In this document: positions 11,831 through 50,379 of the stretch, in pieces
How positions within the stretch are numbered: the first letter of the stretch is position 1
Layout of the letters: each line of letters begins with the position of its first letter
Assembly: GCA_964603935.1 (NCBI GenBank)
Contig: CAZRWL010000004.1
Coordinates: 1 to 60,691 of the forward strand
From: an uncultured Gammaproteobacteria bacterium
Lineage (GTDB): Bacteria; Patescibacteriota; Microgenomatia; Levybacterales; UBA12049
Reading direction: 5' to 3'
DNA length: 60,691 nt
The notes under the pieces: model-generated
The model's database searches: none
What the model was told of the DNA's origin: nothing
Seen by the model: only the letters and a program-made list of their open reading frames with translations
Position numbers and translations under genes: made by a program

Positions 11831-12410
11831 GCGGATTTTTATAGTTCACGGCTGGGGCGGAAATCCAAGGGAAAATTGGTTTCCCTGGTTAAGAAAAGAG
11901 CTGGAAGCCAAAGGTTTTGAAGTTTTTGTCCCCCAACTACCTGATCCTGAAAATCCAAGAATATACAATTGGGTTCCAAAATTAGCAGAAGCTGTTGGCA
12001 CAAACCAGGACGAACAAACCTATTTCGTGGGACACAGCATGGGTTGCCAGACAATCGCAAGATATCTTGAAAACTTACCAGAAAATATCCAAGTTGGAGG
12101 CGCAGTTTTTGTTGCCGGGTTTTTCAAAAGATTAACCGGACTTGAAGATGAACCCGGAGTTCCGGAAACTGATAAGCATTGGCTTGGTACGCCTCTTGAT
12201 TTAGCAAAAGTTAAATCTCATTTGCTTAAAAGTGTAGCGATTTTTTCAGACAACGACCCCTATGTTCCCTTAGATAATCAAGGCGATTTTAGAGACAAAC
12301 TCGGGTCAAAAATTATTATCGAACATCAAATGGGCCACTTCAATGAAAGCGCCGGAATAATCCAACTCCCCATCGCTTTGAAATCTGTTTTGGAAATTTC
12401 TAAAAAGTGA
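11823..12410 (+). CDS. RBBP9/YdeN family alpha/beta hydrolase
   Basis: IVHGWGG, NWFPWL, GHSMG, SDNDPYVP, GHF. Confidence 0.92.
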   Translation: MNKRIFIVHGWGGNPRENWFPWLRKELEAKGFEVFVPQLPDPENPRIYNWVPKLAEAVGTNQDEQTYFVGHSMGCQTIARYLENLPENIQVGGAVFVAGFFKRLTGLEDEPGVPETDKHWLGTPLDLAKVKSHLLKSVAIFSDNDPYVPLDNQGDFRDKLGSKIIIEHQMGHFNESAGIIQLPIALKSVLEISKK

Positions 12411-12436
12411 GATGCTGAAATAAATTCAGCATGACA
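12409..12436. repeat. 28-bp palindromic element, family A (GAGATGCTGAA-N6-TTCAGCATGACA)
   Basis: Related copies at 13777, 32003, 32040, 37384 and 50352; expanded 46-bp copies at 28590, 37936 and 48345. Confidence 0.9.
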
Positions 12437-12442
12437 ATGAAA

Positions 12443-13765
12443 TTACTCTGCTTCTCGTTTTTTGTCAACATTATAGAATTTGATGCGGTCGCCGCGAAAA
12501 ATCAAATCTATCTCTCCCATCGGACCGTTTCTGTGTTTGGCTATCAAAAGCTTGGTCTGCATGGTCGGAGTAATTTCTGCCTCAGGACGGTATAAAAACA
12601 TCACCACATCCGCATCCTGTTCGATTGCCCCTGATTCCCTCAAATCCGCAAGCTGTGGTTTTTTCTCTCCTCTATGCTCTACTGCGCGGGATAATTGCGA
12701 CACTGCCAAAACAGGAACTTTTAATTCCCTTGCTAAATTTTTTAGGGACTGGGAAACAATGGATACCTCCTGCACGCGATTGTCATACCTTCGACCCGGA
12801 TCAACAAGCTGAAGATAATCAACGATAAAAAGGGAAATATTTTGCTCCAAAATAAGACGCCTTGCTTTCGTGCGCATTTCGGATATTGTAATTCCGGGCG
12901 TGTCATCTATAAAAATCGGCGCATCTGCCAATTCCCCCATTGCGTGTGAAAGCTTTGTAAAATCAGAGTCTGTTAATTTTCCTGTTTTTATTCTCCATGC
13001 GTCAACATCCGCCTGACCTACCAACAAACGATCCACCAATTCCTCTTTGCTCATTTCCAAAGAAAATATCGCAACAGGGGTTTTGTCTACGACACCTGCA
13101 TGCTGGGCAATGTTTACGATCATTGCTGTTTTTCCCTGTCCGGGACGGGCAGCCAAAATCAGCAAATTGGACTGCTGCATTCCCGAAAGTGTATTATCCA
13201 AATCAACAAAACCTGTTTTTACTCCCCTTAACCCCGCTCCCTTCTTATGAAGTTCGTCAATTCTGTCAAAGCTTTCAGCCAATGCTTCTTTAAGAGGAAC
13301 AAATGATCTTAATGAACTTTTTTGGGATATTGCAAAAATTGATGATTCTGCTCTGTCCAGAACCGAATCGATTTCCTTGTCGTCCGCAAAACCCATTTCG
13401 GCAATTTGAGCTCCAGCCTGAATTAAAGACCTTTTTGTTGCAGCTTCTTTAATAAGAAGAGCATAATGTTCAATATTTGCAGCTGTTGGAACTGCATCAA
13501 CAAGTTCTGTCAAATAAGAGGACTCTATCTTCTGGGAAGTTTTATTTTTTTTAAGCTGCGCTCTCAAAGTTAATAAATCAATAGGTTTTCCCTGCTCATA
13601 CAAAGACAGCATTACCCCGAATATAATTCCATTAATAGGATTGTAGAAATCATCAATGGCAAGAAGCTGGGAAACTGTCGCAACAGCATCTTTATCTATG
13701 AGAATTGCTCCCAAAACACTGGCTTCCGCTTCTTCATTATGAGGGGGAACCTTCAATGTAGACAT
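12443..13765 (-). CDS. dnaB: Replicative DNA helicase
   Basis: PPHNEEAE, AARPGQGKT, DYLQL, QLSRAVE, DLRESGAIEQDAD, KHRNGP; no intein. Confidence 0.98.
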   Translation of the reverse strand: MSTLKVPPHNEEAEASVLGAILIDKDAVATVSQLLAIDDFYNPINGIIFGVMLSLYEQGKPIDLLTLRAQLKKNKTSQKIESSYLTELVDAVPTAANIEHYALLIKEAATKRSLIQAGAQIAEMGFADDKEIDSVLDRAESSIFAISQKSSLRSFVPLKEALAESFDRIDELHKKGAGLRGVKTGFVDLDNTLSGMQQSNLLILAARPGQGKTAMIVNIAQHAGVVDKTPVAIFSLEMSKEELVDRLLVGQADVDAWRIKTGKLTDSDFTKLSHAMGELADAPIFIDDTPGITISEMRTKARRLILEQNISLFIVDYLQLVDPGRRYDNRVQEVSIVSQSLKNLARELKVPVLAVSQLSRAVEHRGEKKPQLADLRESGAIEQDADVVMFLYRPEAEITPTMQTKLLIAKHRNGPMGEIDLIFRGDRIKFYNVDKKREAE

Positions 13766-13776
13766 AACTTATTAAA

Positions 13777-13804
13777 TGTCATGCTGAACTTGTTTCAGCA
13801 TCTC
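13777..13804. repeat. Family A palindromic element (intergenic)
   Basis: TGTCATGCTGAACTTGTTTCAGCATCTC. Confidence 0.9.
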
Positions 13805-13820
13805 ATTATGACAAGAATTA

Positions 13821-14339
13821 TCATCCAAGCGTTACCACTTCCATTTTCTCCGGCAGTTTGTCTTTTGTTATTGTTATTTTGGACACTGGAATTGCATTCT
13901 CAACACCCAGCGCTTTTGCCGCTTCTGCTTTTTTATCTCCATACAATATTGTAATTTTTGGCTCCAGGCCTGTTATTGACGATTCGCTAAATTCATCATC
14001 TGTATTTATTACTGCGACCTGACATTCATCAAATCCATCAACTTTCGATTCTGTTGTTTTGCCCAAAATAACACTTACGGCATCTATTGAAAACCTGTAT
14101 AGAATTCCTTTGGGAGTTGATGTTCCTGAGATTTTTGCGCCCCCAACCTCATATCCTCCCGGACCGCTTATGATCATTCGCGAGTCAGTTATCCTTGATA
14201 AATCAACATTGCCGACTCCATCCAGAAGAGCTATCGCGTCCGCACTCGTTTTTGGCATTTCTCTTGCGGGGTCTACGATAAAAGTTGCGCTTTTGCCTTT
14301 AATCTTTATAGTATTTTTGCCAATAATCGAAATATCCAC
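13821..14339 (-). CDS. Degenerate MBL-fold (Lactamase_B_3-like) protein
   Basis: IKIKGK..IVDP, GPGGYEVGG, LEPKITI; the HxHxDH metal motif is absent. Confidence 0.7.
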   Translation of the reverse strand: MDISIIGKNTIKIKGKSATFIVDPAREMPKTSADAIALLDGVGNVDLSRITDSRMIISGPGGYEVGGAKISGTSTPKGILYRFSIDAVSVILGKTTESKVDGFDECQVAVINTDDEFSESSITGLEPKITILYGDKKAEAAKALGVENAIPVSKITITKDKLPEKMEVVTLG

Positions 14340-14420
14340 TCCAACATCCTACCACAGAGATATTTTCTTGACAAGTATTGCCTTTTATCGTATTATCACT
14401 TATCCAAGAGATTTTCAAAA

Positions 14421-14846
14421 ATGAAAAAAGAAAAACTTATCCTCTCTTTTATCGCTATTGTCTTCGGTCTTTTAGCCGCGGGTGGAATATTCTATATTCT
14501 CCAAGCAGCAAAAACAGTTCCCGCAAATAATGCCAATATTGCATCTCTTATTTCTCCAACGCCAACTCCTATTCCTTCTGTTTTTTTAACTATTGACCGG
14601 CCTAAAGACGAAGAGGTTGTAACCAGCAAAATATTAACCATTTCGGGAAAAACCGTAAGTAATGCCGTCATTGTTATCATCACCGATTCCTCCGAAGACG
14701 TAATTACCCCCGCATCTAATGGCAATTTTTCCGCGACTGTTAAAATCGACAATGACCAAAATATTATACAAATCACAGCTATCGCGCCGAACGGAGAACA
14801 GGTTACGGTTAAAAAAACAATCACATATTCACAAGAAGAATTTTAA
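14421..14846 (+). CDS. Membrane-anchored Ig-like domain protein
   Basis: N-terminal TM, PTPTP linker, beta-rich LTISGKT...GNFS...NIIQITA. Confidence 0.75.
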   Translation: MKKEKLILSFIAIVFGLLAAGGIFYILQAAKTVPANNANIASLISPTPTPIPSVFLTIDRPKDEEVVTSKILTISGKTVSNAVIVIITDSSEDVITPASNGNFSATVKIDNDQNIIQITAIAPNGEQVTVKKTITYSQEEF

Positions 14847-14849
14847 TTT

Positions 14850-15533
14850 ATGTATAAAAAATTTTTATCATTATTGCTAATTGTTAATTGCTACTTGTTA
14901 ATTGTTGCGCCTTTGGCGCTGGCTGCCACTCCAACTCAGGATGATAGAACGCAGGAAATAAGAGATCAACTGATAACAAATATTGCCTCCCGCGTTGCGC
15001 AGTTAAAATTAGTTGAAAAACGCGGAATAATAGGCATAGTTATCAATGTTACCAATACTCAAATTACCGTTACAGACTTACAGAACAATACGCGCTTCAT
15101 AGATGTTGACGAATTGACTAAATTTTCTTCTCCCAATGCCAGAGGAACTTATGGAATTTCAGACATTAAAAAAGACTCAGCTATCGGAGTTTTGGGATTA
15201 TACAATAAGGAATCACGAAGAATTTTAGCCAGATTTGTCAATGCTATAACTGTTCCGCTTATCGTTCATGGAGGTGTTGCTGCAATTGATAATGAAAATT
15301 TCGCCATAACTATTGCAACGGAAAAGGGTAAAGAGATTATTGCTGACATAGAAGCCTTGACCAGAACTTACTTGTACACACAAGAAGAAGGATATGGCAG
15401 ATCCGGATTTTCAAAAATTAAAGAAAATTACAGCATTATAGCTGTTGGCGTAAAAGACATAAAAGACAACCAAAGAATGACTGCAACCAGAATTATATTT
15501 TTCCCGGAAATTCCCGCCAGACTTCCAAAATGA
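14850..15533 (+). CDS. Secreted protein with repeated beta (DUF5666-like) modules
   Basis: Signal peptide ALA; two G-x-V..I..TKF/SDIK...G repeats. Confidence 0.65.
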   Translation: MYKKFLSLLLIVNCYLLIVAPLALAATPTQDDRTQEIRDQLITNIASRVAQLKLVEKRGIIGIVINVTNTQITVTDLQNNTRFIDVDELTKFSSPNARGTYGISDIKKDSAIGVLGLYNKESRRILARFVNAITVPLIVHGGVAAIDNENFAITIATEKGKEIIADIEALTRTYLYTQEEGYGRSGFSKIKENYSIIAVGVKDIKDNQRMTATRIIFFPEIPARLPK

Positions 15534-16657
15534 TTACTCATTTAATTAAACTTCGGCAGGAGATAGCCAAAAATAAATTGGATGCAGCGTTAATCTCTTC
15601 AGTATCCAATATCATTTATTTAACAAAATATTCAGGATTTTCAAAAGAGGAACGTGAAGCATATTTATTTATTACTCAAAACCAGCAATATATTCTAACT
15701 GACGGGAGATATGCTCATGCGATTAAAACATTAATTCCAAATTTTAAATTAATCGAAATCTCCTCAACGAATTCGGCAGAAGATATATTAAAAAAACTTA
15801 AAACCAAACACAAAATAAAAAGGCTCGGCGTTGAAGAAAATAATTTAACCCACAAAGAGTACAAAGAACTTTCTGCCTGCTTTAATGACCTGCCTGCCGG
15901 CAAGGCGGGTTTAAATCATTTTAGTTTGAATAATTTTCGTGCAATAAAAAACGGGAAAGAAATTTCCGCAGTAGAAAAGGCTTGTAAGCTTGGAGATAAA
16001 ACTTTTGCTTATATTCTAAAAAAAATTAAACTCGGAGTTTCGGAAAAAGGGGTAGCAAATGAAATAGAATTTTTTATCAAAAAACATGGCGCTGACATTT
16101 CTTTCCGTCCAATCGTTGCTTTTGGAAAAAACTCAGCTATTCCCCACCACGTTTCTACCCATAACTCCAAACTCTTAACTCATAACTCAATCATATTGTT
16201 GGATTTCGGTGTTAAATTAAATAACTATTGTTCCGACATGACCCGCACAGTCTTCTTCGGCAAACCAAGTCCCGAACAGAAACGCATGTACAAAACCGTT
16301 CTCCAGGCGCAAAAGCTTGCCATCGAATCCCTCACCTCGGATGGTGGCAGGCTGAGCTTGCGAAGCCATGACTCCTCCGAGGTGGATCGAATCGCCCGCG
16401 ATTATATAATTTCTAAAGGCTACTCAACTATCCCCCACTCTCTCGGTCATGGCATCGGCATTGACGTCCACGAATCTCCCCATCTTTCTCCCAACTCCAA
16501 AGATATATTAAAAGAAGGCATGGTTTTTTCCATCGAACCCGGAATTTATTCTCCAAATTTTGGTGGAGTCAGAATCGAAGATTTAGTGGTTTTGGAAAAA
16601 AACAATGTCCGCCTCCTCACCCACTCCCCAAAAGGCCCTCTTGACATATTGTCATAA
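15530..16657 (+). CDS. pepP: Xaa-Pro aminopeptidase (M24B) carrying three in-frame repeat insertions
   Basis: Creatinase_N domain, DFG, YCSDMTRT, HSLGHGIG, EPGIY, GVRIED. Confidence 0.93.
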   Translation: MITHLIKLRQEIAKNKLDAALISSVSNIIYLTKYSGFSKEEREAYLFITQNQQYILTDGRYAHAIKTLIPNFKLIEISSTNSAEDILKKLKTKHKIKRLGVEENNLTHKEYKELSACFNDLPAGKAGLNHFSLNNFRAIKNGKEISAVEKACKLGDKTFAYILKKIKLGVSEKGVANEIEFFIKKHGADISFRPIVAFGKNSAIPHHVSTHNSKLLTHNSIILLDFGVKLNNYCSDMTRTVFFGKPSPEQKRMYKTVLQAQKLAIESLTSDGGRLSLRSHDSSEVDRIARDYIISKGYSTIPHSLGHGIGIDVHESPHLSPNSKDILKEGMVFSIEPGIYSPNFGGVRIEDLVVLEKNNVRLLTHSPKGPLDILS

Positions 16658-16677
16658 ATATGACATTATAATTATAT

Positions 16678-16911
16678 ATGCAGCTTATACGAACGACTTT
16701 GAGATTAAAAGAAAATCTAAAAAAACGTGCAGAAAAAAAAGCGTTTGACGAAAACGTAAGCTTACAAGCTATTTTTAACCAAGCTCTGGAACAATATCTT
16801 GAAAAAGACGCTAAGAAACAAGCAAAAAAAATTATATTAAAAGCATATCACTTCGGTAAAAATTTAGATAACTTAACCCGCAATGATTTCTACCCTGACC
16901 CAGAAATTTAA
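16678..16911 (+). CDS. Ribbon-helix-helix antitoxin
   Basis: RTTLRL...SLQAIFNQALEQYL; promoter palindrome TGTCATA-AA-TATGACA at 16650-16665. Confidence 0.8.
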   Translation: MQLIRTTLRLKENLKKRAEKKAFDENVSLQAIFNQALEQYLEKDAKKQAKKIILKAYHFGKNLDNLTRNDFYPDPEI

Positions 16912-16912
16912 T

Positions 16913-17341
16913 ATGCTAATCGACACAAATATCTTAGTTTATTCTATCAATCTAGATTCACTAAAATATAAACAAGCCAAAGAATTTATAAACAATAACC
17001 TAGGCAGACTGGAAATTGCTCACCAGAATATTCTTGAAGCGATTAGAGTATTAACTCATAAAAAATTTTCCAATCCTAGGAAATTAAAAGAAGCGCTAAG
17101 TTCTACTTTGTCAATCGCGCAATCATGTTCCCTGATTTCGCCCAATCAGAATACGCTCTATCTGGCACTTGAGTTAATTAAAAAACATAACTTGAGCGGA
17201 AATAGGATTTTTGATGCTTATCTCACTGCAACAGCGCTCTCCAACGGAATTACGTCAATTGCTACAGACAACACCCGAGATTTCAAGAAATTCAATGGAA
17301 TCAAAACCATTAACCCTTTTGCCTCAACAATCCGCAATTAA
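16913..17341 (+). CDS. VapC/PIN domain toxin
   Basis: MLIDTNILVY, E, IFDAYL, TDNTRDF. Confidence 0.9.
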   Translation: MLIDTNILVYSINLDSLKYKQAKEFINNNLGRLEIAHQNILEAIRVLTHKKFSNPRKLKEALSSTLSIAQSCSLISPNQNTLYLALELIKKHNLSGNRIFDAYLTATALSNGITSIATDNTRDFKKFNGIKTINPFASTIRN

Positions 17342-17359
17342 ATTCCGATATTTTGATAC

Positions 17360-17388
17360 TTGACTTTCGTTGGGTAAAGTGATATAAT
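17360..17388 (+). promoter_or_regulatory. Sigma70 promoter (TTGACT-17-TGnTATAAT) overlapped by a 20-bp imperfect palindrome GACTTTC-N6-TAAAGTG (HisR-type operator)
   Basis: Palindrome at 17362-17381 resembles the YACTTTA-N6-TAAAGTR motif recalled for TrpR-family HisR regulators; lies directly upstream of the TrpR-like gene. Confidence 0.65.
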
Positions 17389-17401
17389 TTAGTATGATAC
17401 A

Positions 17402-17686: not shown

Positions 17687-17738
17687 AACTTATGAAATCT
17701 CAACCGCCGTCGAGACTTGAAGAGCATTCGGGATTTTC

Positions 17739-17768
17739 TTGACAATATGCAAAACAACATGATATAAT
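17739..17768 (+). promoter_or_regulatory. Consensus sigma70 promoter TTGACA-18-TGnTATAAT
   Basis: TTGACA 17739-44, TATAAT 17763-68; the ATG at 17776 sits at about +1 (leaderless). Confidence 0.8.
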
Positions 17769-17775
17769 ACTTTAT

Positions 17776-17835: not shown

Positions 17836-17860
17836 TTTTTGTTGCTTAAAAAATAATTAC

Positions 17861-27786: not shown

Positions 27787-28740
27787 TTAATCTAGGCGGA
27801 CGATTTCTTCTTCAAGGAGAATATGGTATTTATCTTTTATCGCTTGTTTTGCAACGCTAATAAGCACTTTTACATCTTCCGCAGTGGCACTATCAACATT
27901 CAGAATAAAATTAGGATGCTTTTCAGATATCATTGCTCCCCCTGCTCTTTTTCCTTTCAAATCGCATAGCGCTAATAATTTCGTAGTTGGGACAACGGGA
28001 AAAGGATCGGTTTTGACAAAAGACGCAAATTCTCTCTGCAAATCCCTGGAGAGTGAATCTAAGGGAATATTCTTGAAAGTGCTGCCAATGTTTGGATAAT
28101 TCATCGGGTGGCGGTTATTCCGATAATCCATTTTCTGTTGAATTTTCTCCCTTATTTCATTTTTGTCTCCCGGTGCTAATTCCAAAATTACATGGGTAAT
28201 AAATTCATTCTCTCCCTCACCCGATTTAAATACGCTGTTGCGATAACCGAATTGACACTCTGTATTATTTCTTATTCTTTCTTCCAAGCTGTTAATAGCT
28301 AAGCTGCTAACCGCCGCAACAGAGTCCTTTATCTCACCCCCAAAAGCCCCCGCGTTCCCCCGAACAGCGCCGCCCAAAGTTCCGGGAAGCCCTCCGGCCC
28401 ATTCCAAGCCGGTTAGTGAATTTTCAATGCAATAATCCAAAAGATCTTTTATCAAAACTCCCGAACCGACTGTTAAATTATTCTTTGCTCTCTCTATTCC
28501 CCGTATTTTATTATAAATTACCAATCCATCAAATCCCTCATCGCTTATCAAAACATTCGTCCCCCGGCCTAAAATAAATATCTTCTCGTTGTCATTCTGA
28601 ACACCCTTCGGGTACTTTGCTTGTTTCAGGATCTCCCTTAACTCCCTTATCGACTCTATTTCAATAAAAAACTTAGCAGAACCGCCAATTCTAAAATTAC
28701 TGTAGTTTTTCAGAGGAACCCGGCTTTTGATTTTAGACAT
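27787..28740 (-). CDS. murB: UDP-N-acetylenolpyruvoylglucosamine reductase
   Basis: FRIGG, GRGTNVL, GLPGTLGGAVRGNAGA, FGYRNS, GSTFKN, HPNF. Confidence 0.96.
   Translation of the reverse strand: MSKIKSRVPLKNYSNFRIGGSAKFFIEIESIRELREILKQAKYPKGVQNDNEKIFILGRGTNVLISDEGFDGLVIYNKIRGIERAKNNLTVGSGVLIKDLLDYCIENSLTGLEWAGGLPGTLGGAVRGNAGAFGGEIKDSVAAVSSLAINSLEERIRNNTECQFGYRNSVFKSGEGENEFITHVILELAPGDKNEIREKIQQKMDYRNNRHPMNYPNIGSTFKNIPLDSLSRDLQREFASFVKTDPFPVVPTTKLLALCDLKGKRAGGAMISEKHPNFILNVDSATAEDVKVLISVAKQAIKDKYHILLEEEIVRLD
28590..28635. repeat. 46-bp expanded family A element, in frame within murB
   Basis: Encodes [15 protein letters not shown]; near-identical to 37936-37981 and 48345-48390. Confidence 0.92.
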
Positions 28741-28744
28741 GTTA

Positions 28745-29851
28745 TTATTGGTTAGGGGCGGCAACCAAGGTTGCTTTTACAATCAATGTCTTACTGCTTC
28801 TCCATAGAGATACTGAAATAACATCGCCGATTTTCCTCCTTGTTACAATAGCCGCAACCGTATTTTCATCTGCGCCGACTTTCTCGCCATCTATGTTTGT
28901 GATGATGTCTCCGCTTACTATTCCTGCTTTTTCTGCAGGAGAATCTGTCATTACGGTCTGCACATAAGCGCCTTGAGGAATATCGTTAAGAGCAGCGATG
29001 TCCCGCTTGAGCATTTTATACGCGATACCTAAATAAGGCCTGTTGAATTGACCGCTTTTATTGAAGTTGCTGAGGCTATCCTTGATAATATTTATCGGAA
29101 GCGCAAATCCAATATTCTCCGCCCCCGAAGCAATCGCAGTATTAACTCCTATTACCTGACCCGAGGAATTGACCAGCGGTCCCCCTGAATTACCGGGATT
29201 TATAGCAGCATCTGTTTGTATAACATCATCAATTTTCTCCGCAAATCCTTCGAATGCAGATCCCGCTGTTATTCCGCGCCCTATTCCGCTTACTATTCCT
29301 TTCGTAACACTGCCTCTAAATTCTCCTAAAGGAGTGCCGACAGCAACCACTAACTGCCCTACTTTTACCGTTGACGAATCTCCCATCTCAACGGGCTTCA
29401 ATCCCGAAGCATCGATTTTCACAATAGCGATATCGTTTACCGGATCTCTATAGACACTTTTCACGTCGTACTTCTTCCCGTCATGAGTTATTACTTTATA
29501 TTTTCCGGGCGCATCGACCACATGTTTGTTTGTTACTATTAATCCGTCTCCCGAAACAACAAATCCCGACCCAATATCTTGTTCCTGCTTTGCAGCCTGC
29601 GGACCGGAGAAAATATCAAAAGGATCAAAATTAATAATTCGCTGTTCTATACCAACTGTTACAACAGATGGGGAAATTTTTTCAACCACGCTTACAACTA
29701 CCGATTCTTCCGAAACTATTTTAACTTTCTCTGAAGATTTTGCAGATTCTTTCCCGCCAATTCCGATTAAGCTTGGCAAATAGGAAGATGCCGTGTTCCA
29801 GACACCCAAAATAATTAAAAGAATTACAACGATCAAAATTAACTTCCTCAT
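28745..29851 (-). CDS. htrA: HtrA/DegP-family serine protease with PDZ domain
   Basis: GSGF, TNKHVV, DIA, QTDAAINPGNSGGPL. Confidence 0.95.
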   Translation of the reverse strand: MRKLILIVVILLIILGVWNTASSYLPSLIGIGGKESAKSSEKVKIVSEESVVVSVVEKISPSVVTVGIEQRIINFDPFDIFSGPQAAKQEQDIGSGFVVSGDGLIVTNKHVVDAPGKYKVITHDGKKYDVKSVYRDPVNDIAIVKIDASGLKPVEMGDSSTVKVGQLVVAVGTPLGEFRGSVTKGIVSGIGRGITAGSAFEGFAEKIDDVIQTDAAINPGNSGGPLVNSSGQVIGVNTAIASGAENIGFALPINIIKDSLSNFNKSGQFNRPYLGIAYKMLKRDIAALNDIPQGAYVQTVMTDSPAEKAGIVSGDIITNIDGEKVGADENTVAAIVTRRKIGDVISVSLWRSSKTLIVKATLVAAPNQ

Positions 29852-32002: not shown

Positions 32003-32067
32003 TGTCATCCCGAACTCGTTTCGGGATCTCGGCTCAAACGAGATGCTGAAACAAGTTCAGCATGACA
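32003..32067. repeat. Inverted pair of family A elements
   Basis: 32003-32030 and 32040-32067, between rpsF and ssb. Confidence 0.9.
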
Positions 32068-36976: not shown

Positions 36977-38164
36977 CTATGCGCCAATTTTAAACTCTAC
37001 GACATCCCCATCCTGCATGATGTAATCCCGGCCTTCGAGGCGCGCCTTGCCGTTTTCCCGAGCGCCTTTCCAACCGTTTAAGCTAACAAACTCCGAATAA
37101 GAAACAACTTCTGCTTTGATAAATTTTTTTGTAAAATCAGTATGAATCACTCCTGCCGCATCAACTGCCTTCATCCCTTTCTGAATGGTCCAAGCCCTAA
37201 CTTCTTTTTCTCCGGCTGTTAAAAAAGAAATTAAACCAAGTTTTTCATATGCTCTTCTTATCAGGTGCTCAAGCCCTGACTCTTTAAGCCCCAATTCTGA
37301 AAGATATTGCTTTTGCTCGTCTCCTGACAATTCCGACAAATCAGATTCTATTTTCGCGCAAATTACAACCATATTATCCAAATTGTCATGCTGAACTGGT
37401 TTCAGCATCTCCCTATATTTTTGAGCAATGGATTTGATCGCTTCCTCGTTATAATCCGCCTCAGACACATTCAGAATAATTATTTCCGGTTTTGCGGACA
37501 AAAGAAAAAAGGTGTTCGCGAATTCCTGTTCTTCTGGTGTTAAGATAATTTCTCTTGCAGGCTTTCCGCTATTTAGGTCTTTAAATAATTTTTCAATCGC
37601 TGTTTTTTCCGATTCTTTGGCAAATCTTTTTACCTTGCTTTGCGCAGATGTGATTGTTTGTAAATCTGCCAAAATTAATTCTGTCTCGATTGCCTCATAA
37701 TCTTCTTTCGGCCCGACGCTTCCTTCACGAATAATAGGGACTTGCCCTGAGCTGGCCGAAGGGTCTTCAAAAGCGCGGACAACATGAGCGATTATTGAAA
37801 CTTCGCGGATATGGGATAAAAACTTATTTCCCAATCCCGCCCCTTCCGACGCGCCCTTAACAAGTCCGGCAATGTCCACAAAGTTTACAGTAGCAGGTTT
37901 TATCGGCGGCCATTTACTTTTGTCCGTCCCTTCGTTGTCATGCTGAATACCCTTCGGGTACTTTGCTTGTTTCAGCATCTCCCCAGCCGTTATTTCCGCT
38001 AACTTTTCTAGTCTTTGATCCGGCACTGGAACAATACCGACATTCGGTTCAATAGTCGCAAAAGGATAATTCGCCACAAACGCTTGCTGCTTTTTCAAAA
38101 GCGCGTTAAACAAAGTGCTTTTGCCCACATTCGGCAGCCCCACAATCCCCACGCTCAGATTCAT
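36977..38164 (-). CDS. ychF: Redox-regulated ATPase YchF with three in-frame repeat insertions
   Basis: GIVGLPNVGKST, NYPFATIEPN, DIAGLV, GLGNKFL, TGS domain. Confidence 0.97.
   Translation of the reverse strand: MNLSVGIVGLPNVGKSTLFNALLKKQQAFVANYPFATIEPNVGIVPVPDQRLEKLAEITAGEMLKQAKYPKGIQHDNEGTDKSKWPPIKPATVNFVDIAGLVKGASEGAGLGNKFLSHIREVSIIAHVVRAFEDPSASSGQVPIIREGSVGPKEDYEAIETELILADLQTITSAQSKVKRFAKESEKTAIEKLFKDLNSGKPAREIILTPEEQEFANTFFLLSAKPEIIILNVSEADYNEEAIKSIAQKYREMLKPVQHDNLDNMVVICAKIESDLSELSGDEQKQYLSELGLKESGLEHLIRRAYEKLGLISFLTAGEKEVRAWTIQKGMKAVDAAGVIHTDFTKKFIKAEVVSYSEFVSLNGWKGARENGKARLEGRDYIMQDGDVVEFKIGA
37384..37411. repeat. Family A element, in frame in ychF (EMLKPVQHD)
   Basis: TGTCATGCTGAACTGGTTTCAGCATCTC. 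Confidence 0.9.
37936..37981. repeat. 46-bp expanded family A element, in frame in ychF
   Basis: Encodes EMLKQAKYPKGIQHD. Confidence 0.92.
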
Positions 38165-40482: not shown

Positions 40483-40566
40483 TGTCATTGCGAGGAGCGT
40501 TAGCGACGAAGCAATCTCTCTTTCAACTTAAGATTGCCACGCTCATTTCATTCGCTCGCAATGACA
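40483..40566. repeat. Paired palindromic element TGTCATTGCGAG...GCAATCT / AGATTGC...CTCGCAATGACA
   Basis: Terminal inverted repeat TGTCATTGCGAG/CTCGCAATGACA; shares TGTCAT...ATCT ends with family A. Confidence 0.85.
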
Positions 40567-44152: not shown

Positions 44153-45183
44153 CTTGCTCTTATTCCGCTTCTATTATTTCGATTGATAGCATTTCCCGCG
44201 GATGGAGGATTCAAAAGTACTCTTTGTTTTTCCTGCAAGCCTTTAACAATTTCAACGCTTACGTCCGAACTGATTCCGGGACTAACTCCAACAGGAGTCA
44301 AACCCTTCTGCGACTGAACAAAAACAGTATTGTCTTCCCGCAAAGCCTCTATGGGAATTGTTAAGACATTTTTTGCGCTTTTTATTATGATTGTCGCTTC
44401 TCCGCTTAGGCCATTCACGAAATTCTCGGGAGAACTGTCAAGCCTTATTCTGACAGTAACCGCATTGGCTCCGGAAGAGGTAGTTTTAATCTGAGGTAAA
44501 ATTTTGGCAACCTCGCCTGCATACGCAGTCGGATATGCGTCAAGAGCTACAACTGCAGAAAGTCCGATTGTTATTTTTCCGATATCCGCTTCGTCAATAT
44601 CCGTATCGAAAAAAACTTGCGAATTATCAACCACCTGCGCAATTACATCTGCCGCTGAAACATTTTGTCCGGCCACATTAAGCGCTTGAATAACAATTCC
44701 CGGAATGGGAGAATACAAAACCGAATCACTCAGCGCTTGTTTGGCAGCCAATAACCCTTCATATGCGTTATCCTGCGCCGCCTCGGCTGTTGTCCTTGTC
44801 TGTCTTTGAGCAAAAGTTTCCGCATTGCCGACATCTTTTAAATCATCATGTATTTTGTCAACAATTGCCCTTTTGTCCCGCAAAGTATTTTCCGTTTCCC
44901 GCAAAGCAATATTCAAAGTCTCTGTATCCAAACCGCCGATAATTTGCCATTGAGAAACAATGTCTCCCGCGTCAACATTCATGTATGCTAATTTTCCGCT
45001 GGTTTTAAAATGCAAATTTACGCTGTTTTTTCCGGTCAACGTGCCGGCGCCCGAAACTTCCTCACGTATATTCTCTCTTTTAACAGAAACAAATTGAAGG
45101 GGAACAGGTTTTTTTCTATTTGAAAAAATAAAAAAACCAACCAGAATAATAGCAATAAATAAAATCCAGCCCCAATATTTCAC
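44149..45183 (-). CDS. Efflux membrane-fusion (MacA-like) protein
   Basis: TM anchor, lipoyl halves (SPIPG), IDEADI, EIVKGL. Confidence 0.9.
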   Translation of the reverse strand: MKYWGWILFIAIILVGFFIFSNRKKPVPLQFVSVKRENIREEVSGAGTLTGKNSVNLHFKTSGKLAYMNVDAGDIVSQWQIIGGLDTETLNIALRETENTLRDKRAIVDKIHDDLKDVGNAETFAQRQTRTTAEAAQDNAYEGLLAAKQALSDSVLYSPIPGIVIQALNVAGQNVSAADVIAQVVDNSQVFFDTDIDEADIGKITIGLSAVVALDAYPTAYAGEVAKILPQIKTTSSGANAVTVRIRLDSSPENFVNGLSGEATIIIKSAKNVLTIPIEALREDNTVFVQSQKGLTPVGVSPGISSDVSVEIVKGLQEKQRVLLNPPSAGNAINRNNRSGIRAR

Positions 45184-45221
45184 GCTACGGATTATATCAC
45201 GTTCTGATCTTCCGATTATTA

Positions 45222-46709
45222 TTAAACGTATCCCGGGAAGAAGTCAATCTTAACTTGATCTGAACTAATACCCATACTTTTCAAAGTTTGCTCAAAACCT
45301 GAGACCATCGCATGCGGTCCGGAAAGATAAAACAATCTTTCTTTCCAATCCAAAACCTCTTCTTTAATCATTTTTGCGTCAATTCTTCCTATCTTTCCCT
45401 TCCAACCAGCAGGAATTTCCCCGGTCAATGTGTAAACAGTTTTTATTCCCAGACTGGAAAATGCTTGATTCCAAACATCCGTATACATAATTTCCGATGC
45501 GAATTTATTTGAATAAAGCAAAATAATATCCCTTTTCTCTCCCTTGTCTAAAAGATATTTAGTCATACTTCTGTAGGGCGTAATTCCTATTCCTCCGGCA
45601 ATAAATACGATCTTTTTGCTTACGTCTCCGGGCAAAATAAATGTACCTGCCAACTGCGCTCCTGCCAAAGGAGTTTTATGATCAAGATTTGCTAATGCTT
45701 TTTTAAAACTGCTTCCATTGGAATAAAGTTTAATTCCAAGTTTTAAGATATTCTCTGTCGGCGAAGATGCAATGGTAAAATATCTCCTGTTACCTCTGCT
45801 GTCGGATTTATCGTGCGGCAAAGTCCATTCCAGATATTGTCCGGGAACAAAATCGATTTTTTTATCCGGATTGAAAGTAAAATCAAGAATATCCGGTCCG
45901 ATTTTCAGCTTCTTCTTTAAAGTTAAAAGTAATTTTTGTTTCGGACTGACAAGGTAAGAAAAAATATTCCCCAACACGAGAGCAATTTCCGGAGTTAAGT
46001 AAATCACTCCCATACCAACTAAAATCCCATACAATATTCTCCATGCTTTCGAAGGAGGAGTTGTCAATGGTTCCGTCAACATGATAAATGCGAGGAAAAA
46101 TAATGCTGATTGAAAAAAAATTGTCTTTAATGATCCGATTAAATCTCCATGATTAAAGTATGCAAAACCCAAAACAACAATCGCTGCCGTAGCTAAAAAA
46201 CTGAATAGCAAATCTTCTCTCTGAATTTTTTTGACTATCAACAATCCGCCCAAAACAACAAACGGCATCATCCATGCGTTCCCCACCCACCAGCTTGCAT
46301 ACTGGCCGATAATAATCGGAGTTAGCACTACCGCAATGGCAGCCGGATTAAAAATATGCTTCCTGTTAATCGCCAATATATATTTTGATGCCATAGACAA
46401 AACACCAACCGATCCTAATAATGCAAACGAGCGGAAAGAAAATGAAGGAGTAACAATAAGGGCCAAAATAAGAGCAGTTATGTATACCGATTCTATATTG
46501 GCCGGAACTTTAAGAACAGAGGTAAAAATTTTGTTGGATATCCAGCATATTGAAATAAGAAAAAAAACTGAAAAAATTATTTCATATGGAAAAAAAGGAA
46601 GAACTCCAAAAAAACTTAGCGCGAACGCAATCACGACGAAGATAATTAAAAAATACAGCACAAGCCTGTACATTGTAATTCTGTCCAGAAAATTATCTAT
46701 CAAGTTCAT
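45222..46709 (-). CDS. NqrB/RnfD-like membrane domain fused to an FNR-type FAD/NAD-binding domain
   Basis: HIFNPAA, MLTEPLTTP; RYFTIASSP, IAGGIGITPY, YLSGP, DFFPGY. Confidence 0.88.
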   Translation of the reverse strand: MNLIDNFLDRITMYRLVLYFLIIFVVIAFALSFFGVLPFFPYEIIFSVFFLISICWISNKIFTSVLKVPANIESVYITALILALIVTPSFSFRSFALLGSVGVLSMASKYILAINRKHIFNPAAIAVVLTPIIIGQYASWWVGNAWMMPFVVLGGLLIVKKIQREDLLFSFLATAAIVVLGFAYFNHGDLIGSLKTIFFQSALFFLAFIMLTEPLTTPPSKAWRILYGILVGMGVIYLTPEIALVLGNIFSYLVSPKQKLLLTLKKKLKIGPDILDFTFNPDKKIDFVPGQYLEWTLPHDKSDSRGNRRYFTIASSPTENILKLGIKLYSNGSSFKKALANLDHKTPLAGAQLAGTFILPGDVSKKIVFIAGGIGITPYRSMTKYLLDKGEKRDIILLYSNKFASEIMYTDVWNQAFSSLGIKTVYTLTGEIPAGWKGKIGRIDAKMIKEEVLDWKERLFYLSGPHAMVSGFEQTLKSMGISSDQVKIDFFPGYV

Positions 46710-46915
46710 GACAATGAAGCTTTGTAGCCGGTTTTTTTTATTTGGTCTATTATTGCTTGGGGTTTTATTCTCTCTTCATCGAACTCAACCTCAGTCTCTT
46801 GTTTTGCATAGCTGGTTTTAGCGTTTTTCACACCCAAATCTTCCAGATCAAAATCAATGCTCATCGCGCAGCTGACGCAATGCATCCCTTCAATTTTAAA
46901 TTTTAATTTTTTCAT
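46706..46915 (-). CDS. copZ: Heavy-metal-associated (CopZ-like) chaperone
   Basis: GMHCVSC, ...GY. Confidence 0.88.
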   Translation of the reverse strand: MKKLKFKIEGMHCVSCAMSIDFDLEDLGVKNAKTSYAKQETEVEFDEERIKPQAIIDQIKKTGYKASLS

Positions 46916-46955
46916 AAAAGATCCTTCGACTTCGCTCAGGATGATTTGACTGCTG

Positions 46956-47972
46956 TCAAATCACCTCGATCACTCCCCTATACATTCCCATTGAGCAGGA
47001 AAACGGAATGGGTCCTGTTTTCTGAGGAGTAAAGGTTATTGTTTGCGTTTCGTTCGGCTGTAAATTCTTGCTTATTCCAAGCTGGGGAATCCTGAATGCG
47101 GATGCGCAGCTGTATGCGTCTTTACCAATCAGCTTAATTGTTACAGGAGACCCTTTTCTGACCTTAATGTAATTTGGCGAGTAACCCTGAGGAGTAATAA
47201 TAATTTCCGCATTTTGACTTATTTGCGTATTGTTATTTTGAGCCGGATTTGCGCCAAAGACAATTAGAACATCCTCTGTTACAGACTGTATTGATATGGG
47301 CGAACCGCCGGCTACCAATGCTCCATTTGCAGAAGTTATTCCCAGATACAAAACAGCAATAGCTGCTATTTTCAAAAACTTTTCTCTGAAGTTATCCCCC
47401 AAAATACTGGTTATCCAGCCTATTCCGAAAAATAAAGGCATTGTTCCCAAAACAAAAGCAGCCATAATCGCAGCTCCCAGAAAAGCGTTTGCACTGCTAA
47501 TAGCCAAAGCTTCCATCGCCAAGGTGGTACCGCAGGGAATAAAAATAGTCATAGCTCCCAAAAAGATAGGCGCAAATAAGTCTTTACTTTTAGATTGATT
47601 TCTGACTCGCCTTGTCAAAAATTTTGGCGGCTGAATAACCGCATATCTGAAAACCGGGTGCACCTCCAAAAGATTGAAAGCAACAGCAACCATGTAAATT
47701 CCGGCCGCAAATTGCATGATTATTTGCGCTTGCTGACTTATACCAATTGCTCCTCCAAAAGCACCAAGAATAAATCCCAATATCGAATAAGAAACTAATT
47801 TCGCCAGTAAAAAAGCAAGGGTCGGAAAAATCGTATTTTTTCGGTTAATTCCCCTTTCGATTTCCTCTTCTTCTTTGGCTGCGATAACTGATGCCAAAAG
47901 CCCGCCCTGAACAGCAAGGCAAGTCAATCCTCCAACAGTAAGACCGGTGATAAATATTACCCACAAATCCAT
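46956..47972 (-). CDS. DsbD_2/TauE-like membrane protein fused to a cupredoxin domain
   Basis: TCLAVQGG, IPCG, FVLGT; C-terminal SC...FSCSMGMY. Confidence 0.85.
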   Translation of the reverse strand: MDLWVIFITGLTVGGLTCLAVQGGLLASVIAAKEEEEIERGINRKNTIFPTLAFLLAKLVSYSILGFILGAFGGAIGISQQAQIIMQFAAGIYMVAVAFNLLEVHPVFRYAVIQPPKFLTRRVRNQSKSKDLFAPIFLGAMTIFIPCGTTLAMEALAISSANAFLGAAIMAAFVLGTMPLFFGIGWITSILGDNFREKFLKIAAIAVLYLGITSANGALVAGGSPISIQSVTEDVLIVFGANPAQNNNTQISQNAEIIITPQGYSPNYIKVRKGSPVTIKLIGKDAYSCASAFRIPQLGISKNLQPNETQTITFTPQKTGPIPFSCSMGMYRGVIEVI

Positions 47973-47973
47973 A

Positions 47974-50343
47974 TTATATTTTTGCTTTTTTCAACAATAA
48001 AGAATTAGCGACAACAGAAATAGAACTGGTTGCCATGGCAACCGATGCAAAAATAGGACTCAAAAGAAGATGAAAAAACGGATATAAAACTCCCATAGCA
48101 ACCGGTATTAATATTACATTATAACCAAACGCCCAGAAAAGATTCAACTTAATTGTCCGCATTGTTTTTTTAGATAATTCGATGGCAGAAGCTACTGTTC
48201 TCAGATCTTTATTGATTAGGGTAATGCCTGCCGCTTCAATTGCCACATCTGTTCCTGTTCCCATCGCTATCCCAACATCTGCTGCAGCCAATGCCGGCGC
48301 ATCATTTATCCCATCGCCAACAAACGCAACTATCTTTTTTCCATTGTCATTCTGAATACCCTCCGGGTACTTCGCTTGCTTCAGAATCTCCTCTTTCTCT
48401 TGAGGCAATATTTCCGCGAAGACTTTCTTAATTCCAATTTGTTTTGCAATCGCATTTGCAGTTCTCTGGTTATCTCCGGTAATCATAACCGTTTCTATTG
48501 CCAAATTGTTTAACTGCTTAATCGCTTCTTTGGCAGAATCCTTAACCGTGTCTGCAACAGCAATAAGCCCTGCCAGTTTCCCATCAACAGCCAACATCAT
48601 AACCGTTTTCCCCTCACTTTCTAACTCCTCAAGGCGTCGCCTTGCAGAATCAACCTCTACCTTTTCTTTATCCATTAATTTTCTATTTCCAAACGAAACT
48701 TTTAACTTTGAACTTTGAACTTTTAACTCGCCCTCTACCCCGTGTCCTGCAATCGCCCTAAACCCTTCAATTTTGCTTAAAGCAAGCTTTTGTTCTTCCG
48801 CTTTCTTAACAATCGCCTCTGCCAGCGAATGCTCACTTCCCTTTTCCAACGACGCGGCCAAACGTAAAATATCCTCCTCATTGAAAGGGGTGGCAAAAGA
48901 GGAGCGGACGAGCGGAGCGACGGAGCTCGCCTGCTTGACAGGCGTGGCATGAGTATTCGCGGCAGGACCCCGACCAATGATGTCAGTGATGATTGGCTTC
49001 CCATTCGTAAGCGTTCCTGTTTTGTCAAAAATAACAACATTAACTTTATGAGCAGTTTCCAGGCTTTGGGCATCTTTGATAAGTATTCCTTTTTCTGCTC
49101 CCAACCCTGTACCAACCATTATTGCTGTTGGAGTTGCCAATCCCATCGCGCAGGGACAAGCGATAATTAGTACGGCAACCGTATTCAGCATGGCAAAAAC
49201 AAATGCCGGCTGCGGACCAAAAATATACCACAGACCAAACGTTACAAATGCCAGCATAATTACGATAGGCACAAAATAAGAAGAAATTAAATCCGCGATT
49301 CTTTGAATAGGCGCTTTGCTTCCCTGCGCTTCCTGCACTAACTTAATGATTTGCGCAAGCATGGTATCGCTGCCTACCTTTGTCGCTTTGTAGAGAAATG
49401 TTCCTGATTTATTAAAAGTTGCGCCAATAACCGCATCTCCTTTTATTTTATCGATAGGTAAACTTTCGCCTGTTACCATTGACTCATCAATTGAAGATTC
49501 TCCCTCCATAATAACTCCGTCAACAGGAATTTTTTCACCCGGTCTGACACGGATAACTTCACCAACGGCAACTTGATCTATTGGAATATCAACTTCTACC
49601 CTTCCCCCTTCCCCCTTCCCCCTTAAAACCCTTGCAGTCTTGGCTTGTAAACCTATTAATTTTTTAATCGCTTCCGATGTGCCCGCCTTTGCTTTTGCTT
49701 CGAAATAACGTCCCAACAAAATCAAGCCGATAACAATCGTAGCCACATCAAAATATGGCATTGCCTCCAAGCCTAAATTCATGATTATATTAGGTAAAAA
49801 TGTTACGAATGCCGAATAAGCAAAAGCAACAGTTGTTCCCAATGCAACCAGAGTGTCCATATTGGCAGTTCGATGTCTTAAGGCAGGAATTGTCGCTTGA
49901 TAAAACATGCTTCCTGCCCAAAACTGAACAGGAATAGCAAGCAGAAATTGCACGAAGAAGTTTTTCAAAAAAATGGGCGCGGTGTTTATCAACCCGGGAA
50001 AACTTCCCCACAAAATCAGCGCTCCCAAAAACAAACTTACAATTACCTTATTCTTCAAAGCTTTCAGTTCTTTTTCTTTTTCAATTTTTTCCTTGTCCGC
50101 CAAAGCTTCAGCGTCGGCGGATTTATCTCCAACAATTAATTTATATCCAACATTGGATACTGCAGATGCTATTTGTTCTTCTCTGCATACATCTGGATCG
50201 TATGTTACCGTTGCTTTTTCTGTTGCCAAATTTACCGCAGCATTACTTATGCCTGAAGTTTTCATCAATGCTCTTTCAATTGTCCTCACACAAGAAGCAC
50301 AATGCATGCCCTTGATTGGAAATGTTTTTTTAACTTCTACCAT
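47974..50343 (-). CDS. copA: Cu(I)-transporting P1B ATPase with several in-frame repeat insertions
   Basis: GMHCASC, TGES, CPC, DKTGT, SEH, GDGIND, YN, MATSS. Confidence 0.97.
48345..48390. repeat. 46-bp expanded family A element, in frame in copA
   Basis: Encodes [15 protein letters not shown]. Confidence 0.9.
48886..48975. repeat. Family B element (90 bp), in frame in copA
   Basis: Encodes GRGPAANTH...FATP; same ends as 35345-35440. Confidence 0.85.
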
Positions 50344-50351
50344 AGTTTTAT

Positions 50352-50379
50352 TGTCATGCCGAACTCGTTTCGGCATCTC
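50352..50379. repeat. Family A element (intergenic)
   Basis: TGTCATGCCGAACTCGTTTCGGCATCTC; stem differs from other copies by compensatory changes. Confidence 0.88.

Follow-up and report, generated by a model that had tools for sequence, protein, structure and literature searches.

How does a short palindromic sequence come to lie in frame inside conserved genes, and what could have carried it there? The question is raised by a window of 60,691 nt (the whole stretch of DNA that was analyzed) from a small-genome groundwater bacterium, probably one of the Patescibacteria to judge by its genome size, completeness, and habitat, whose genome assembly, here G000, comprises 1.08 Mb and is 97% complete. 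A search of the window for TGTCAT-N(10-40)-ATCTC gave 11 matches, compared with 0.62 expected from 100 shuffles, none of which reached 11. Nine copies of the element, here called family A, had been described in an earlier sequence-only reading, and all nine were recovered at exactly the same coordinates. Translation confirmed that four of them are in frame (one in murB, two in ychF, and one in copA), with Pfam domains flanking each copy. The tenth match (40483) has the same ends and a different stem and was named family B; the eleventh (52525), which has no stem, looks like a chance occurrence. The features of the window are as follows.

12409..12436, minus strand: single family-A arm of 28 nt, 7 nt 3′ of the stop codon of dnaB (assigned by Pfam)
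13777..13804, plus strand: single family-A arm of 28 nt, 12 nt 5′ of the dnaB start; fold as single-stranded DNA −6.7 kcal/mol, z −4.3
27787..28764, minus strand: murB, host gene (Pfam FAD_binding_4, MurB_C)
28590..28635, plus strand: 46-nt version of the family-A arm, carrying an 18-nt loop module; it lies in frame within murB on the antisense strand, and its stem has partly decayed
32003..32067, no strand assigned: convergent doublet between rpsF and ssb, in which a 9-nt spacer separates a C-type arm (32003-32030, plus) from a G-type arm (32040-32067, minus); fold −16.8 kcal/mol, z −5.1
36977..38164, minus strand: ychF, host gene (Pfam MMR_HSR1, YchF-GTPase_C; PDB 2dby, E 7e-92)
37384..37411, plus strand: family-A arm of 28 nt, in frame at ychF site 2 (EMLKPVQHD)
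37936..37981, plus strand: family-A arm, 46-nt form, in frame at ychF site 1 (EMLKQAKYPKGIQHD)
40483..40566, no strand assigned: family-B convergent doublet with a TTGCGAG-type stem and TGTCAT/ATC ends
47974..50343, minus strand: copA, host gene (Pfam HMA, E1-E2_ATPase, Hydrolase), with a probable start at MVEVKK as judged from the G004 orthologue
48345..48390, plus strand: 46-nt version of the family-A arm, lying in frame within copA directly before the GDGINDAP motif
50352..50379, plus strand: single family-A arm, 8 nt 5′ of the probable copA start and outside the gene

Across the in-frame copies, the YchF translation reads GEMLKQAKYPKGIQHDNEG and REMLKPVQHDNLD. In four metagenome runs, depth over the family-B doublet was very high.

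A family-A arm consists of a 5′ TGTC tail, an 8-bp stem starting with AT, a 5-nt loop, and a C immediately after the palindrome, with the stem following sCyGAA..TTCrGs. Some arms carry recurrent loop modules of an additional 18, 33, or 39 nt, and sizes range from 28 to 67 nt for arms and from 64 to 160 nt for doublets. The genome holds ∼135 arms, arranged as 53 doublets and 29 singles; every one of the 53 pairs is convergent, and one C-type arm is joined to one G-type arm in 39. The unit is mostly such a doublet rather than the single hairpin of the sequence-only reading. When 28-mers were picked genome-wide by their ends only, 72 were obtained against 0.8 expected, and all eight Watson-Crick pairs were present in 68 of the 72. 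The identity of the pairs varied (pair 7-23: G-C 38, C-G 27, T-A 6; pair 9-21: T-A 49, C-G 22), and the observed stem pairing was reached in none of 1,000 partner shuffles, which bears out the compensatory stem changes noted earlier in the window. TGTCAT and ATC were invariant or nearly so among 104 aligned 28-mers, partly due to the search requirement. As single-stranded DNA, the 28-mer folds with z of about −4, and the degraded murB copy with z −0.36. Each arm is free of stop codons in three of the six frames and, where the stem contains CCGAA, in five of the six.

Searches of other resources gave few leads. In Rfam, only a tRNA was found at the gathering thresholds, and the doublet gave only chance-level matches. 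With phmmer, the 32-residue peptide encoded by a doublet, too short a query to be informative, gave only three hits at E ≤ 0.001 among 1.84 billion representatives. In the literature, the motifs of peptide and DNA turned up nothing beyond primers matching by chance, and a search on palindromic elements in CPR returned nothing relevant. One exact 26-mer match was present in the genome of a Rickettsia endosymbiont (L090). Genome-wide, the orientation of doublets relative to the local gene strand or GC skew was not significantly biased (31 versus 20, p = 0.16).

A large share of the arms lies within genes. Forty-eight of the 135 (36%) are in frame in 26 Pfam-confirmed genes, 45 internally and three as C-terminal tails, and the host genes include those for LeuRS, IleRS, GatB, RecJ, TopA, GuaA, and LepA. 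The four copies in the window share one frame and orientation, as had been noted, but this does not hold for the genome, in which arms within genes use four different stop-free frames. In other genera of the same family, 13 of 31 sampled arms lie within stop-free frames of at least 150 codons. The earlier proposal that the inserts add peptide loops to core proteins is supported. In an AF2 model of YchF (mean pLDDT 81.8), each insert lengthens a helix (H51-67 or H240-258), from which a loop leads to a strand; at site 1, the model places the insert as a helix extension followed by a low-confidence loop.

Comparison with orthologues of MurB, YchF, and CopA supports the earlier view that the copies are insertions. 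The murB copy is confined to G000 among six orthologues and is missing from five congeners. The copy at YchF site 1 (net +51 nt) occurs only in G000 among 33 orthologues, and that at site 2 occurs in G000, in two of five congeners (G004 and G005), and in G026 from another family, being absent in the other 29 aligned orthologues. The CopA copy is common to G000 and G004, in which a variant with a longer loop occupies the same site, and is absent in three CopA homologues of ∼40% identity. Thus, the copies at YchF site 2 and in CopA are common to the nearest relatives, and copies shared by separately assembled congeners keep the palindrome. In LeuRS, all three doublets have empty sites in congeners. 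Since congeners carry empty sites, the family-A copies are lineage-specific insertions. Net length changes at inserts were +12, +15 to +24, and +51 nt; divergence of the flanks (78%-84% protein identity) is too great to fix the exact boundaries or the target site. Under a strict pattern, six congeners hold 3 to 18 copies versus 99 in G000, and the burst in G000 is recent. The element had been called active; activity is something that we infer from the lineage-specific copies.

That reading had found no mobilizing enzyme in the window, and indeed all Y1 and GIY-YIG hits lie on other contigs. It had also pointed to GIY-YIG genes flanked by the same hairpins as worth looking for, and such genes were found, in relatives. 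There, family-A arms flank a gene for a 97-residue, single-domain GIY-YIG protein; in G001 and G005, an arm-GIY-YIG-arm unit lies between thyA and folA, and this unit is absent from the thyA-folA junction of G000. The protein scored 57 bits against Pfam GIY-YIG, gave nothing useful in NCBIfam, and had only weak UPF0213 and UvrC hits in the PDB. A literature search joining GIY-YIG with hairpin or MITE returned nothing relevant. Hairpins and a nuclease of this kind were described in 2025: Ssn nucleases with hairpin motifs (SRM; NTS/dRS3 in Neisseria) in an arm-ssn-arm layout, the nuclease being assigned to CDD family cd10448 (Chenal et al., 2025, PMC11893778).

A survey of 151 genomes took the 30 best loci of the GIY-YIG gene and counted an arm if it lay within 150 nt. 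Arms were present at 22 of the 30 loci and on both sides at 16, compared with 71% and 42% of ssn loci in the published work (PMC11893778); eight ssn-like loci had no arm within this distance. Upstream arms (21) were in the same orientation and downstream arms (17) in the opposite one. All 13 loci at ≥63% identity carry family-A stems. None of the 17 at 49%-59% identity does; nine of these keep the ends but have different stems, among them the published NTS-type core, which the flanking hairpins of homologues at ∼53% identity carry. Arm density was 70 arms per 88.5 kb at GIY-YIG loci versus 14 arms per 126 kb at YchF control loci. Among the relatives covered by both the arm count and the Ssn search (G002 and G006 left out), an Ssn-subfamily hit (E ≤ 1e-20) or an ssn gene in place was present in 8 of the 10 genomes that hold 10 or more arms and in none of the 13 that hold fewer. 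The total number of GIY-YIG genes bears no relation to arm number across 41 genomes (G040, 14 genes and no arms; G024, 4 genes and 121 arms), and among GIY-YIG genes only the Ssn subfamily tracks arms informatively. An ssn gene of family-A type is absent from the G000 assembly; the only Ssn-subfamily gene there, on contig C12, has 54% identity and is flanked by family-B arms.

It is probable that, as a whole, family A represents an Ssn-related hairpin repeat, spread by an Ssn-type nuclease and persisting in frame in genes. The usual unit is a convergent arm pair, which in relatives encloses an ssn-type gene, and doublets and singles without the gene would be non-autonomous copies. During spread, the nuclease may bind the hairpin extruded on single-stranded DNA and cut a few bases 5′ of it, and host replication or repair would finish the copying. 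Insertions at tolerated helix-loop-strand junctions would survive selection and be translated as loops of 10-30 residues; such in-gene copies could survive because an arm lacks stop codons in three of its six frames, or in five for CCGAA stems, and because a loop module brings in 18, 33, or 39 nt. To our knowledge, GIY-YIG nucleases have no strand-joining activity, and the transposition chemistry is therefore not established. The published enzyme is specific for single-stranded DNA, which it cuts on the 5′ side of its hairpin; the three bases 5′ of the palindrome are important in cutting, and the C after it is important in binding (PMC11893778). These properties fit the conserved positions of family A. 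In that paper, mobility of the hairpins is hypothesized only.

One alternative is a REPIN-type element that moves in trans through the action of a RAYT-like Y1 (HUH) transposase, of which the genome has eight; the analogy had already been drawn in the sequence-only reading. G000 encodes eight Y1_Tnp genes above the Pfam cut-off, with HUH (NHFH) and YIHLNP motifs, the doublets are convergent like REPINs, and in one family (f1) a Y1 gene occurs in 10 of the 11 genomes that hold 10 or more arms versus 5 of the 14 that hold fewer. The key test of the analogy fails, however: none of the eight Y1 genes of G000 has an arm within 3 kb or flanking hairpins that could be found, and arms are likewise missing around the one Y1 gene that each of G024, G012, and G022 has (0/3). 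Their scores against NCBIfam REP_Tyr_transpos were 29-62 bits, with a cut-off of 80, and their motifs and length resemble subclass 2.1, which in the part of Quentin et al. consulted is not REP-associated (PMC6006769). In two further families (f2 and f3), Y1 genes occur in 11 of 16 genomes, and arms are absent in 15 of the 16. On neighborhoods, inverted repeats, NCBIfam scores, and co-occurrence, a RAYT link was rejected as the main explanation and appears improbable. Family A also lacks the marks of a classical MITE derived from a DDE insertion sequence, namely a target-site duplication and a parent IS with the same terminal repeats: inspection by eye of the 6 nt on either side of each of the 53 doublets revealed no duplication, and the two DDE_Tnp_1 and two rve hits in G000 all lie on stretches without arms. 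Neither TnpB nor IS110 was found in G000 at its 97% completeness.

The hairpins might instead be non-mobile modules with a host function, such as a hairpin that stabilizes transcripts or acts as a terminator, or else a site for protein binding, and copies could recombine with one another to spread them. Many arms do lie a few bases from gene ends, NTS of Neisseria have a host-level effect on transformation (PMC11893778), and some sites recur across genera (RecJ in G000 and G012; YchF site 2 in G026). We give this explanation little credence, as host function would not account for copies in 26 unrelated essential genes and four frames, the decayed murB stem, a copy number of 3-121 among relatives, or the arm-gene-arm layout. 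That in-gene copies are removed at the RNA or protein level, leaving proteins without extra loops, was considered only because the sequence-only reading had asked about retention, and it is very unlikely: features of introns or inteins are absent, the published nuclease is inactive on RNA (PMC11893778), and the inserts are always whole codons and stop-free, which selection would not demand if they were removed. An assembly or binning artefact might be suspected, given that Logan contigs often end at repeats and that chimeric joints between copies were listed. Among the contigs examined, however, no joint precisely skips an arm, and those that were listed either arose through the repeats or belong to other organisms. 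The murB copy is bridged without differences by Logan contigs of runs X1 and X3, the latter a second sample, and both ychF copies are bridged by contigs of X1, possibly the source sample. With the palindrome retained in shared copies of separately assembled congeners and reading frames intact in 26 genes, the chance of an artefact is close to negligible.

Spread by an Ssn-type nuclease thus remains the preferred reading of family A. More speculatively, Ssn-type elements may be truly mobile, adapted to life inside genes (with arms open in most frames and all three loop modules a whole number of codons), and a general source of loops in essential proteins of small-genome groundwater bacteria; they and the Rickettsia palindromic elements (RPEs) may be one phenomenon, and the arms of G000 may have been spread by an Ssn since lost or by the family-B Ssn acting across families. 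We offer this wider view tentatively. RPEs may depend on Ssn because Rickettsia is listed among the motif-rich genomes in the 2025 paper (PMC11893778).

The published Ssn system was characterized as a host-level modulator of transformation (PMC11893778). Lineage-specific insertions and gene-less doublets provide direct comparative evidence that such hairpins move, and the published SRM search motif overlooks the entire family-A stem family. In-frame palindromic repeats in essential genes have hitherto been known mainly from Rickettsia; the second large case described here involves at least 26 genes, and the affected proteins include two aminoacyl-tRNA synthetases, GatB, LepA, RecJ, and topoisomerase I. 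The insertions are a natural experiment that shows where in conserved proteins a loop can take up 10-30 additional residues, and the family-A-type Ssn and its hairpin form a candidate nuclease/substrate pair.

Units bounded by inverted hairpins are known elsewhere, as in the intergenic mosaic elements of Neisseria and the double-hairpin elements of Allomyces mitochondria, and double-hairpin elements are also found within coding regions. With REPIN/RAYT systems, family A shares a short inverted hairpin pair as the replicating unit, stem covariation, and an enzyme supposedly acting in trans (PMC3116915, PMC3337134). It differs in that no Y1 gene is flanked by arms, the associated gene being a GIY-YIG nuclease, and in that REPs are extragenic by definition, whereas 48 of 135 family-A arms lie in genes. 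With SRM, it shares a (C/T)GTCAT head (published criterion HGTCWY), a C directly after the palindrome, many copies per genome, a GIY-YIG gene of ∼95 residues between arms, and a comparable fraction of ssn loci that carry arms. In contrast to SRM, none of the 135 arms matches the published search sequence (two matches in all of G000 versus one to three in five shuffles), and flanking of an ssn gene in G000 was found for family B only (C12), not for family A. The 36% of arms in frame in genes and the loop modules of 18, 33, or 39 nt also set family A apart; in the main text of PMC11893778, "in-frame" occurs zero times, and the passages covered do not mention coding insertions.

RPEs likewise are palindromic repeats: they have entered many housekeeping genes that are unrelated to each other, keep the frame, and are translated as extra peptide. 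In R. conorii, 44 RPE integrations were reported, nearly half of them in ORFs (Ogata et al., 2000, as reviewed in PMC10969869), and the in-frame gene load of family A (48 copies, 26 genes) is of the same order. Compared by description only, RPEs are longer (∼150 bp; PMC10969869) than the arms of 28-67 nt and doublets of 64-160 nt described here. Family A also differs from RPEs in the phylum of its host, and for family A a candidate partner nuclease has been identified.

The window contains 11 matches to the pattern TGTCAT-N(10-40)-ATCTC (0.62 expected), and nine of these are exactly the family-A copies placed there by the sequence-only reading. Of the other two, the match at 52525 is chance-like and that at 40483 has identical ends around a different stem (family B). 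The window is contig C4 of G000, a genome of groundwater metagenome origin (1,080,654 bases, 58 contigs, 97% complete, GC 0.378). The genome-wide count that the earlier reading had called for gave 135 family-A hairpin repeats, or arms, when one mismatch was allowed per end and the stem was required, far more than the nine in the window. The observation holds, and its extent is far greater than reported. An exact family-A 26-mer was matched in at least 124 stretches, which span very many phyla; among the matches listed are L070, from a metagenome-assembled genome labelled Nanoarchaeota (a binning error is possible), and L090, a Rickettsia endosymbiont chromosome.

Lengths of the 135 arms in G000
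27 nt: 6 arms
28 nt: 104 arms
46-47 nt: 10 arms
50 nt: 1 arm
61 nt: 11 arms
67 nt: 3 arms

Selection of 28-mers by the two ends alone yielded 72 in G000 (0.8 expected), 68 of which have eight Watson-Crick pairs, with clear compensatory changes at two stem positions. As single-stranded DNA, the arm is predicted to fold (z about -4) into an 8-bp stem with a 5-nt loop, preceded by a 4-nt tail (TGTC) and followed by a tail of 3 nt. The loop of longer arms holds extra modules of 18, 33 or 39 nt, each of whole codons. The arms form 53 pairs (doublets) and 29 singles. All the pairs converge; one overlaps, and the spacers of the others measure 8-10, 12-15, 17-18 or 29-32 nt. A C-type arm is paired with a G-type arm in 39 of the 53. 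Among single arms, the TGTCAT strand is the C-rich strand by local GC skew in 23 of 29, a bias confounded with gene orientation and short contigs. Tandem half-arms (head, 5' stem and about 8 nt; one or two repetitions) adjoin the 5' side of a complete arm upstream of ssn genes at six loci (L222, L223, L225, L228, L230 and L233) and are likewise listed at G000 C3:12755-12803. They may be the footprint of a cutting or copying process.

The in-frame copies proposed for murB, ychF and copA were confirmed: the translations of the minus-strand ORFs run through the arms, and Pfam domains flank each arm. The arm at 50352 precedes the likely start of copA by a short distance. Across G000, 48 of the 135 arms are inside 26 ORFs, all of them Pfam-confirmed conserved genes.

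ORFs of G000 with arms inside (window coordinates and strand for the first three, from ORF translation and Pfam)
27787-28764, -, murB: 1 in-frame arm
36977-38164, -, ychF: 2 in-frame arms
47974-50433, -, copA (as ORF): 1 in-frame arm
GuaA: 3 arms
LepA: 2 arms
PurL: 1 arm
GT4 glycosyltransferases, three genes: 2, 2 and 1 arms
IleRS: 1 arm
FolC-like Mur ligase: 2 arms
Mevalonate-kinase-like GHMP kinase: 1 arm
RmlD: 1 arm
CCA-adding enzyme: 1 arm
SecD: 1 arm
RecJ: 4 arms
LeuRS: 6 arms
Metallo-beta-lactamase-fold protein: 1 arm
1368-aa protein: 2 arms
CobQ-like amidotransferase: 2 arms
GatB: 4 arms
RecX: 1 arm
TopA: 2 arms
Wzy/TPR protein: 2 arms
PurH: 1 arm
GAPDH: 1 arm

Three of the 48 genic arms form C-terminal tails (GT4c, RmlD and SecD). 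Stop-free frames of at least 120 codons cover about 89% of G000, and by this rough measure arms are still depleted in genes. The genic arms had been described as always in the same frame, which is true within the window; genome-wide, four stop-free frames are in use (peptide types EMLKQVQHD, CHPELVSGS, VILNLFQDL and RSRNKFGMT), and the single-frame rule is therefore limited to the window. A polarity was observed, the C-type arm standing first, in sense, in 13 of 16 genic doublets; genic single arms are C-type in 3 of 3 sense cases and G- or T-type in 10 of 12 antisense cases. At two pilin-like genes (G000 C11:29630-30768), a doublet immediately precedes the N-terminal methylation motif, and the ATGACA of the arm could provide their start codon.

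Alignment with orthologues from five congeners and from another 27 genomes of the same order revealed the arm-free sites that the sequence-only reading had proposed to look for. YchF site 1, a net gain of 51 nt, is occupied in G000 only among 33 sequences; the MurB arm, among aligned orthologues, and all three LeuRS doublets are likewise confined to G000. The arm at YchF site 2 is present in G000, G004 and G005, where the palindrome is preserved, and in G026, a member of another family; the remaining 29 sequences lack it. The CopA arm is common to G000 and G004, with a different loop module in the latter. Judged from these alignments, the family-A copies at these sites are insertions, not ancestral sequence. 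By a strict pattern, G000 has 99 arms against 3-18 in six congeners; of the family's other genomes, 19 of 24 contain the pattern, as does 1 of 14 in a sister family and neither of the two in a third. Of 31 arms sampled from five other genera, 13 are inside long open frames, one of these cases being RecJ at the site that is occupied in G000. Metagenome contigs bridge the murB arm (runs X3 and X1) and both ychF arms (X1); X1 is possibly the source run.

An AlphaFold2 model of YchF, based on 33 orthologues (mean pLDDT 81.8), predicts that the first half of each insert extends an existing helix (51-67 and 240-258) and that the second half is a loop into the next strand, with low confidence for the loop at site 1. 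Alignment of PDB 2dby to YchF leaves two matching gaps at the inserts.

Other in-frame insertions were also seen. A further 21-nt insertion in ychF (37739-37759, -; SASSGQV) is found in G000 only among 33 orthologues, and YchF of G005, G026, G038 and G069 has further insertions, unrelated in sequence, in the same two loops. An Ala/Ser/Pro-rich repeat (type ..SAPS..VRAVGSPSS.ATP..) occurs in copA (about 48880-48972, -) and in G000 C3:47118-48695 (FolC-like) and C7:16706-19531 (LeuRS); it is absent from the G004 CopA orthologue, and in LeuRS is absent or much shorter in five congeners. A third repeat of about 45 aa (..RQPRVSDDA.L...SASLSKIR.Q.G..PNFSSSE.GLP..) is present in two unrelated genes, G000 C14:17799-20165 (TopA) and C2:72498-73721 (GT4).

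Two kinds of enzyme were weighed as the mobilising partner. G000 has eight RAYT-like genes with a Y1 (HUH transposase) domain, divergent paralogues that are about 225 aa long and share a conserved C-terminal extension, on C16, C29, C2 (two genes), C31, C27, C3 and C53. No arm lies within 3 kb of these eight genes and no flanking hairpins were found at them; the same is true of the single Y1 gene in each of three arm-rich relatives. The Y1 genes score below the NCBIfam RAYT cut-off and are common also in sister families without arms, and on these grounds a RAYT was rejected as the leading candidate for the partner. In motifs and length they resemble subclass 2.1 of Quentin et al., which is reported not to be REP-associated (PMC6006769).

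For GIY-YIG nucleases, the raw gene count was uninformative about arms. The anticipated genes between the same hairpins were found in two relatives: in G001, an arm, 26 nt, a 97-aa GIY-YIG ORF, 2 nt and an inverted arm lie between folA and thyA, with an orthologous copy in G005. The thyA-folA junction of G000 is empty of such a unit. A search with the 97-aa protein over 151 genomes of the family gave a match at 1e-10 in 77. An arm is present within 150 nt at 22 of the best 30 loci. Arms lie upstream and co-oriented at 21 loci, downstream and inverted at 17, and on both sides at 16. Family-A stems accompany all 13 closest homologues (63-100% identity) and none of the 17 more distant ones, nine of which have different stems between TGTCAT/ATC ends, in some cases identical to the core of the Neisseria NTS hairpin; nuclease clade and stem sequence therefore covary. 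The partner is most likely a small GIY-YIG single-strand DNA nuclease of the Ssn type rather than a RAYT, and the proposal that a miniature mobile element has added loops to core proteins is broadly right. Such a nuclease is not known to have joining activity. An ssn gene of the family-A type is missing from the G000 assembly. The one Ssn-subfamily gene of G000 is on C12, between arms of family B, which has only three units in the genome. The family-A copies of G000 may be orphans, be served by the B-type enzyme or have their own gene in an assembly gap. The family-B doublet in the window (40483-40566) reaches a depth in the thousands, far above its flanks, in four groundwater runs, which makes this hairpin a very common one in the community.

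The hairpin and nuclease class is already described. According to the parts of Chenal et al. (2025; PMC11893778) consulted, Ssn proteins (about 94 aa) cut single-stranded DNA a few bases 5' of the NTS hairpin, cutting depending on three bases 5' of the palindrome and binding on the C after it. The broader class of NTS-like hairpins is named Ssn-related motifs (SRM); a motif is near 71% of ssn homologues and on both sides in 42%, and for the IS-like NTS-ssn-NTS layout mobility is a hypothesis only. The searched text of that paper lacks the term "in-frame" and mentions no Patescibacteria. The published SRM search sequence gave chance-level matches over all of G000, and none of the 135 arms match it, which places the family-A stem outside it. 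A 2024 review singles out the Rickettsia palindromic elements as the outstanding example among in-frame repeats (PMC10969869). Family A has its head, its tail C and its layout in common with the Ssn-related motifs. New relative to the known systems are its stem family, a main unit that is a doublet without a gene, evidence for movement from the comparison of genomes, and the in-frame load on essential genes.
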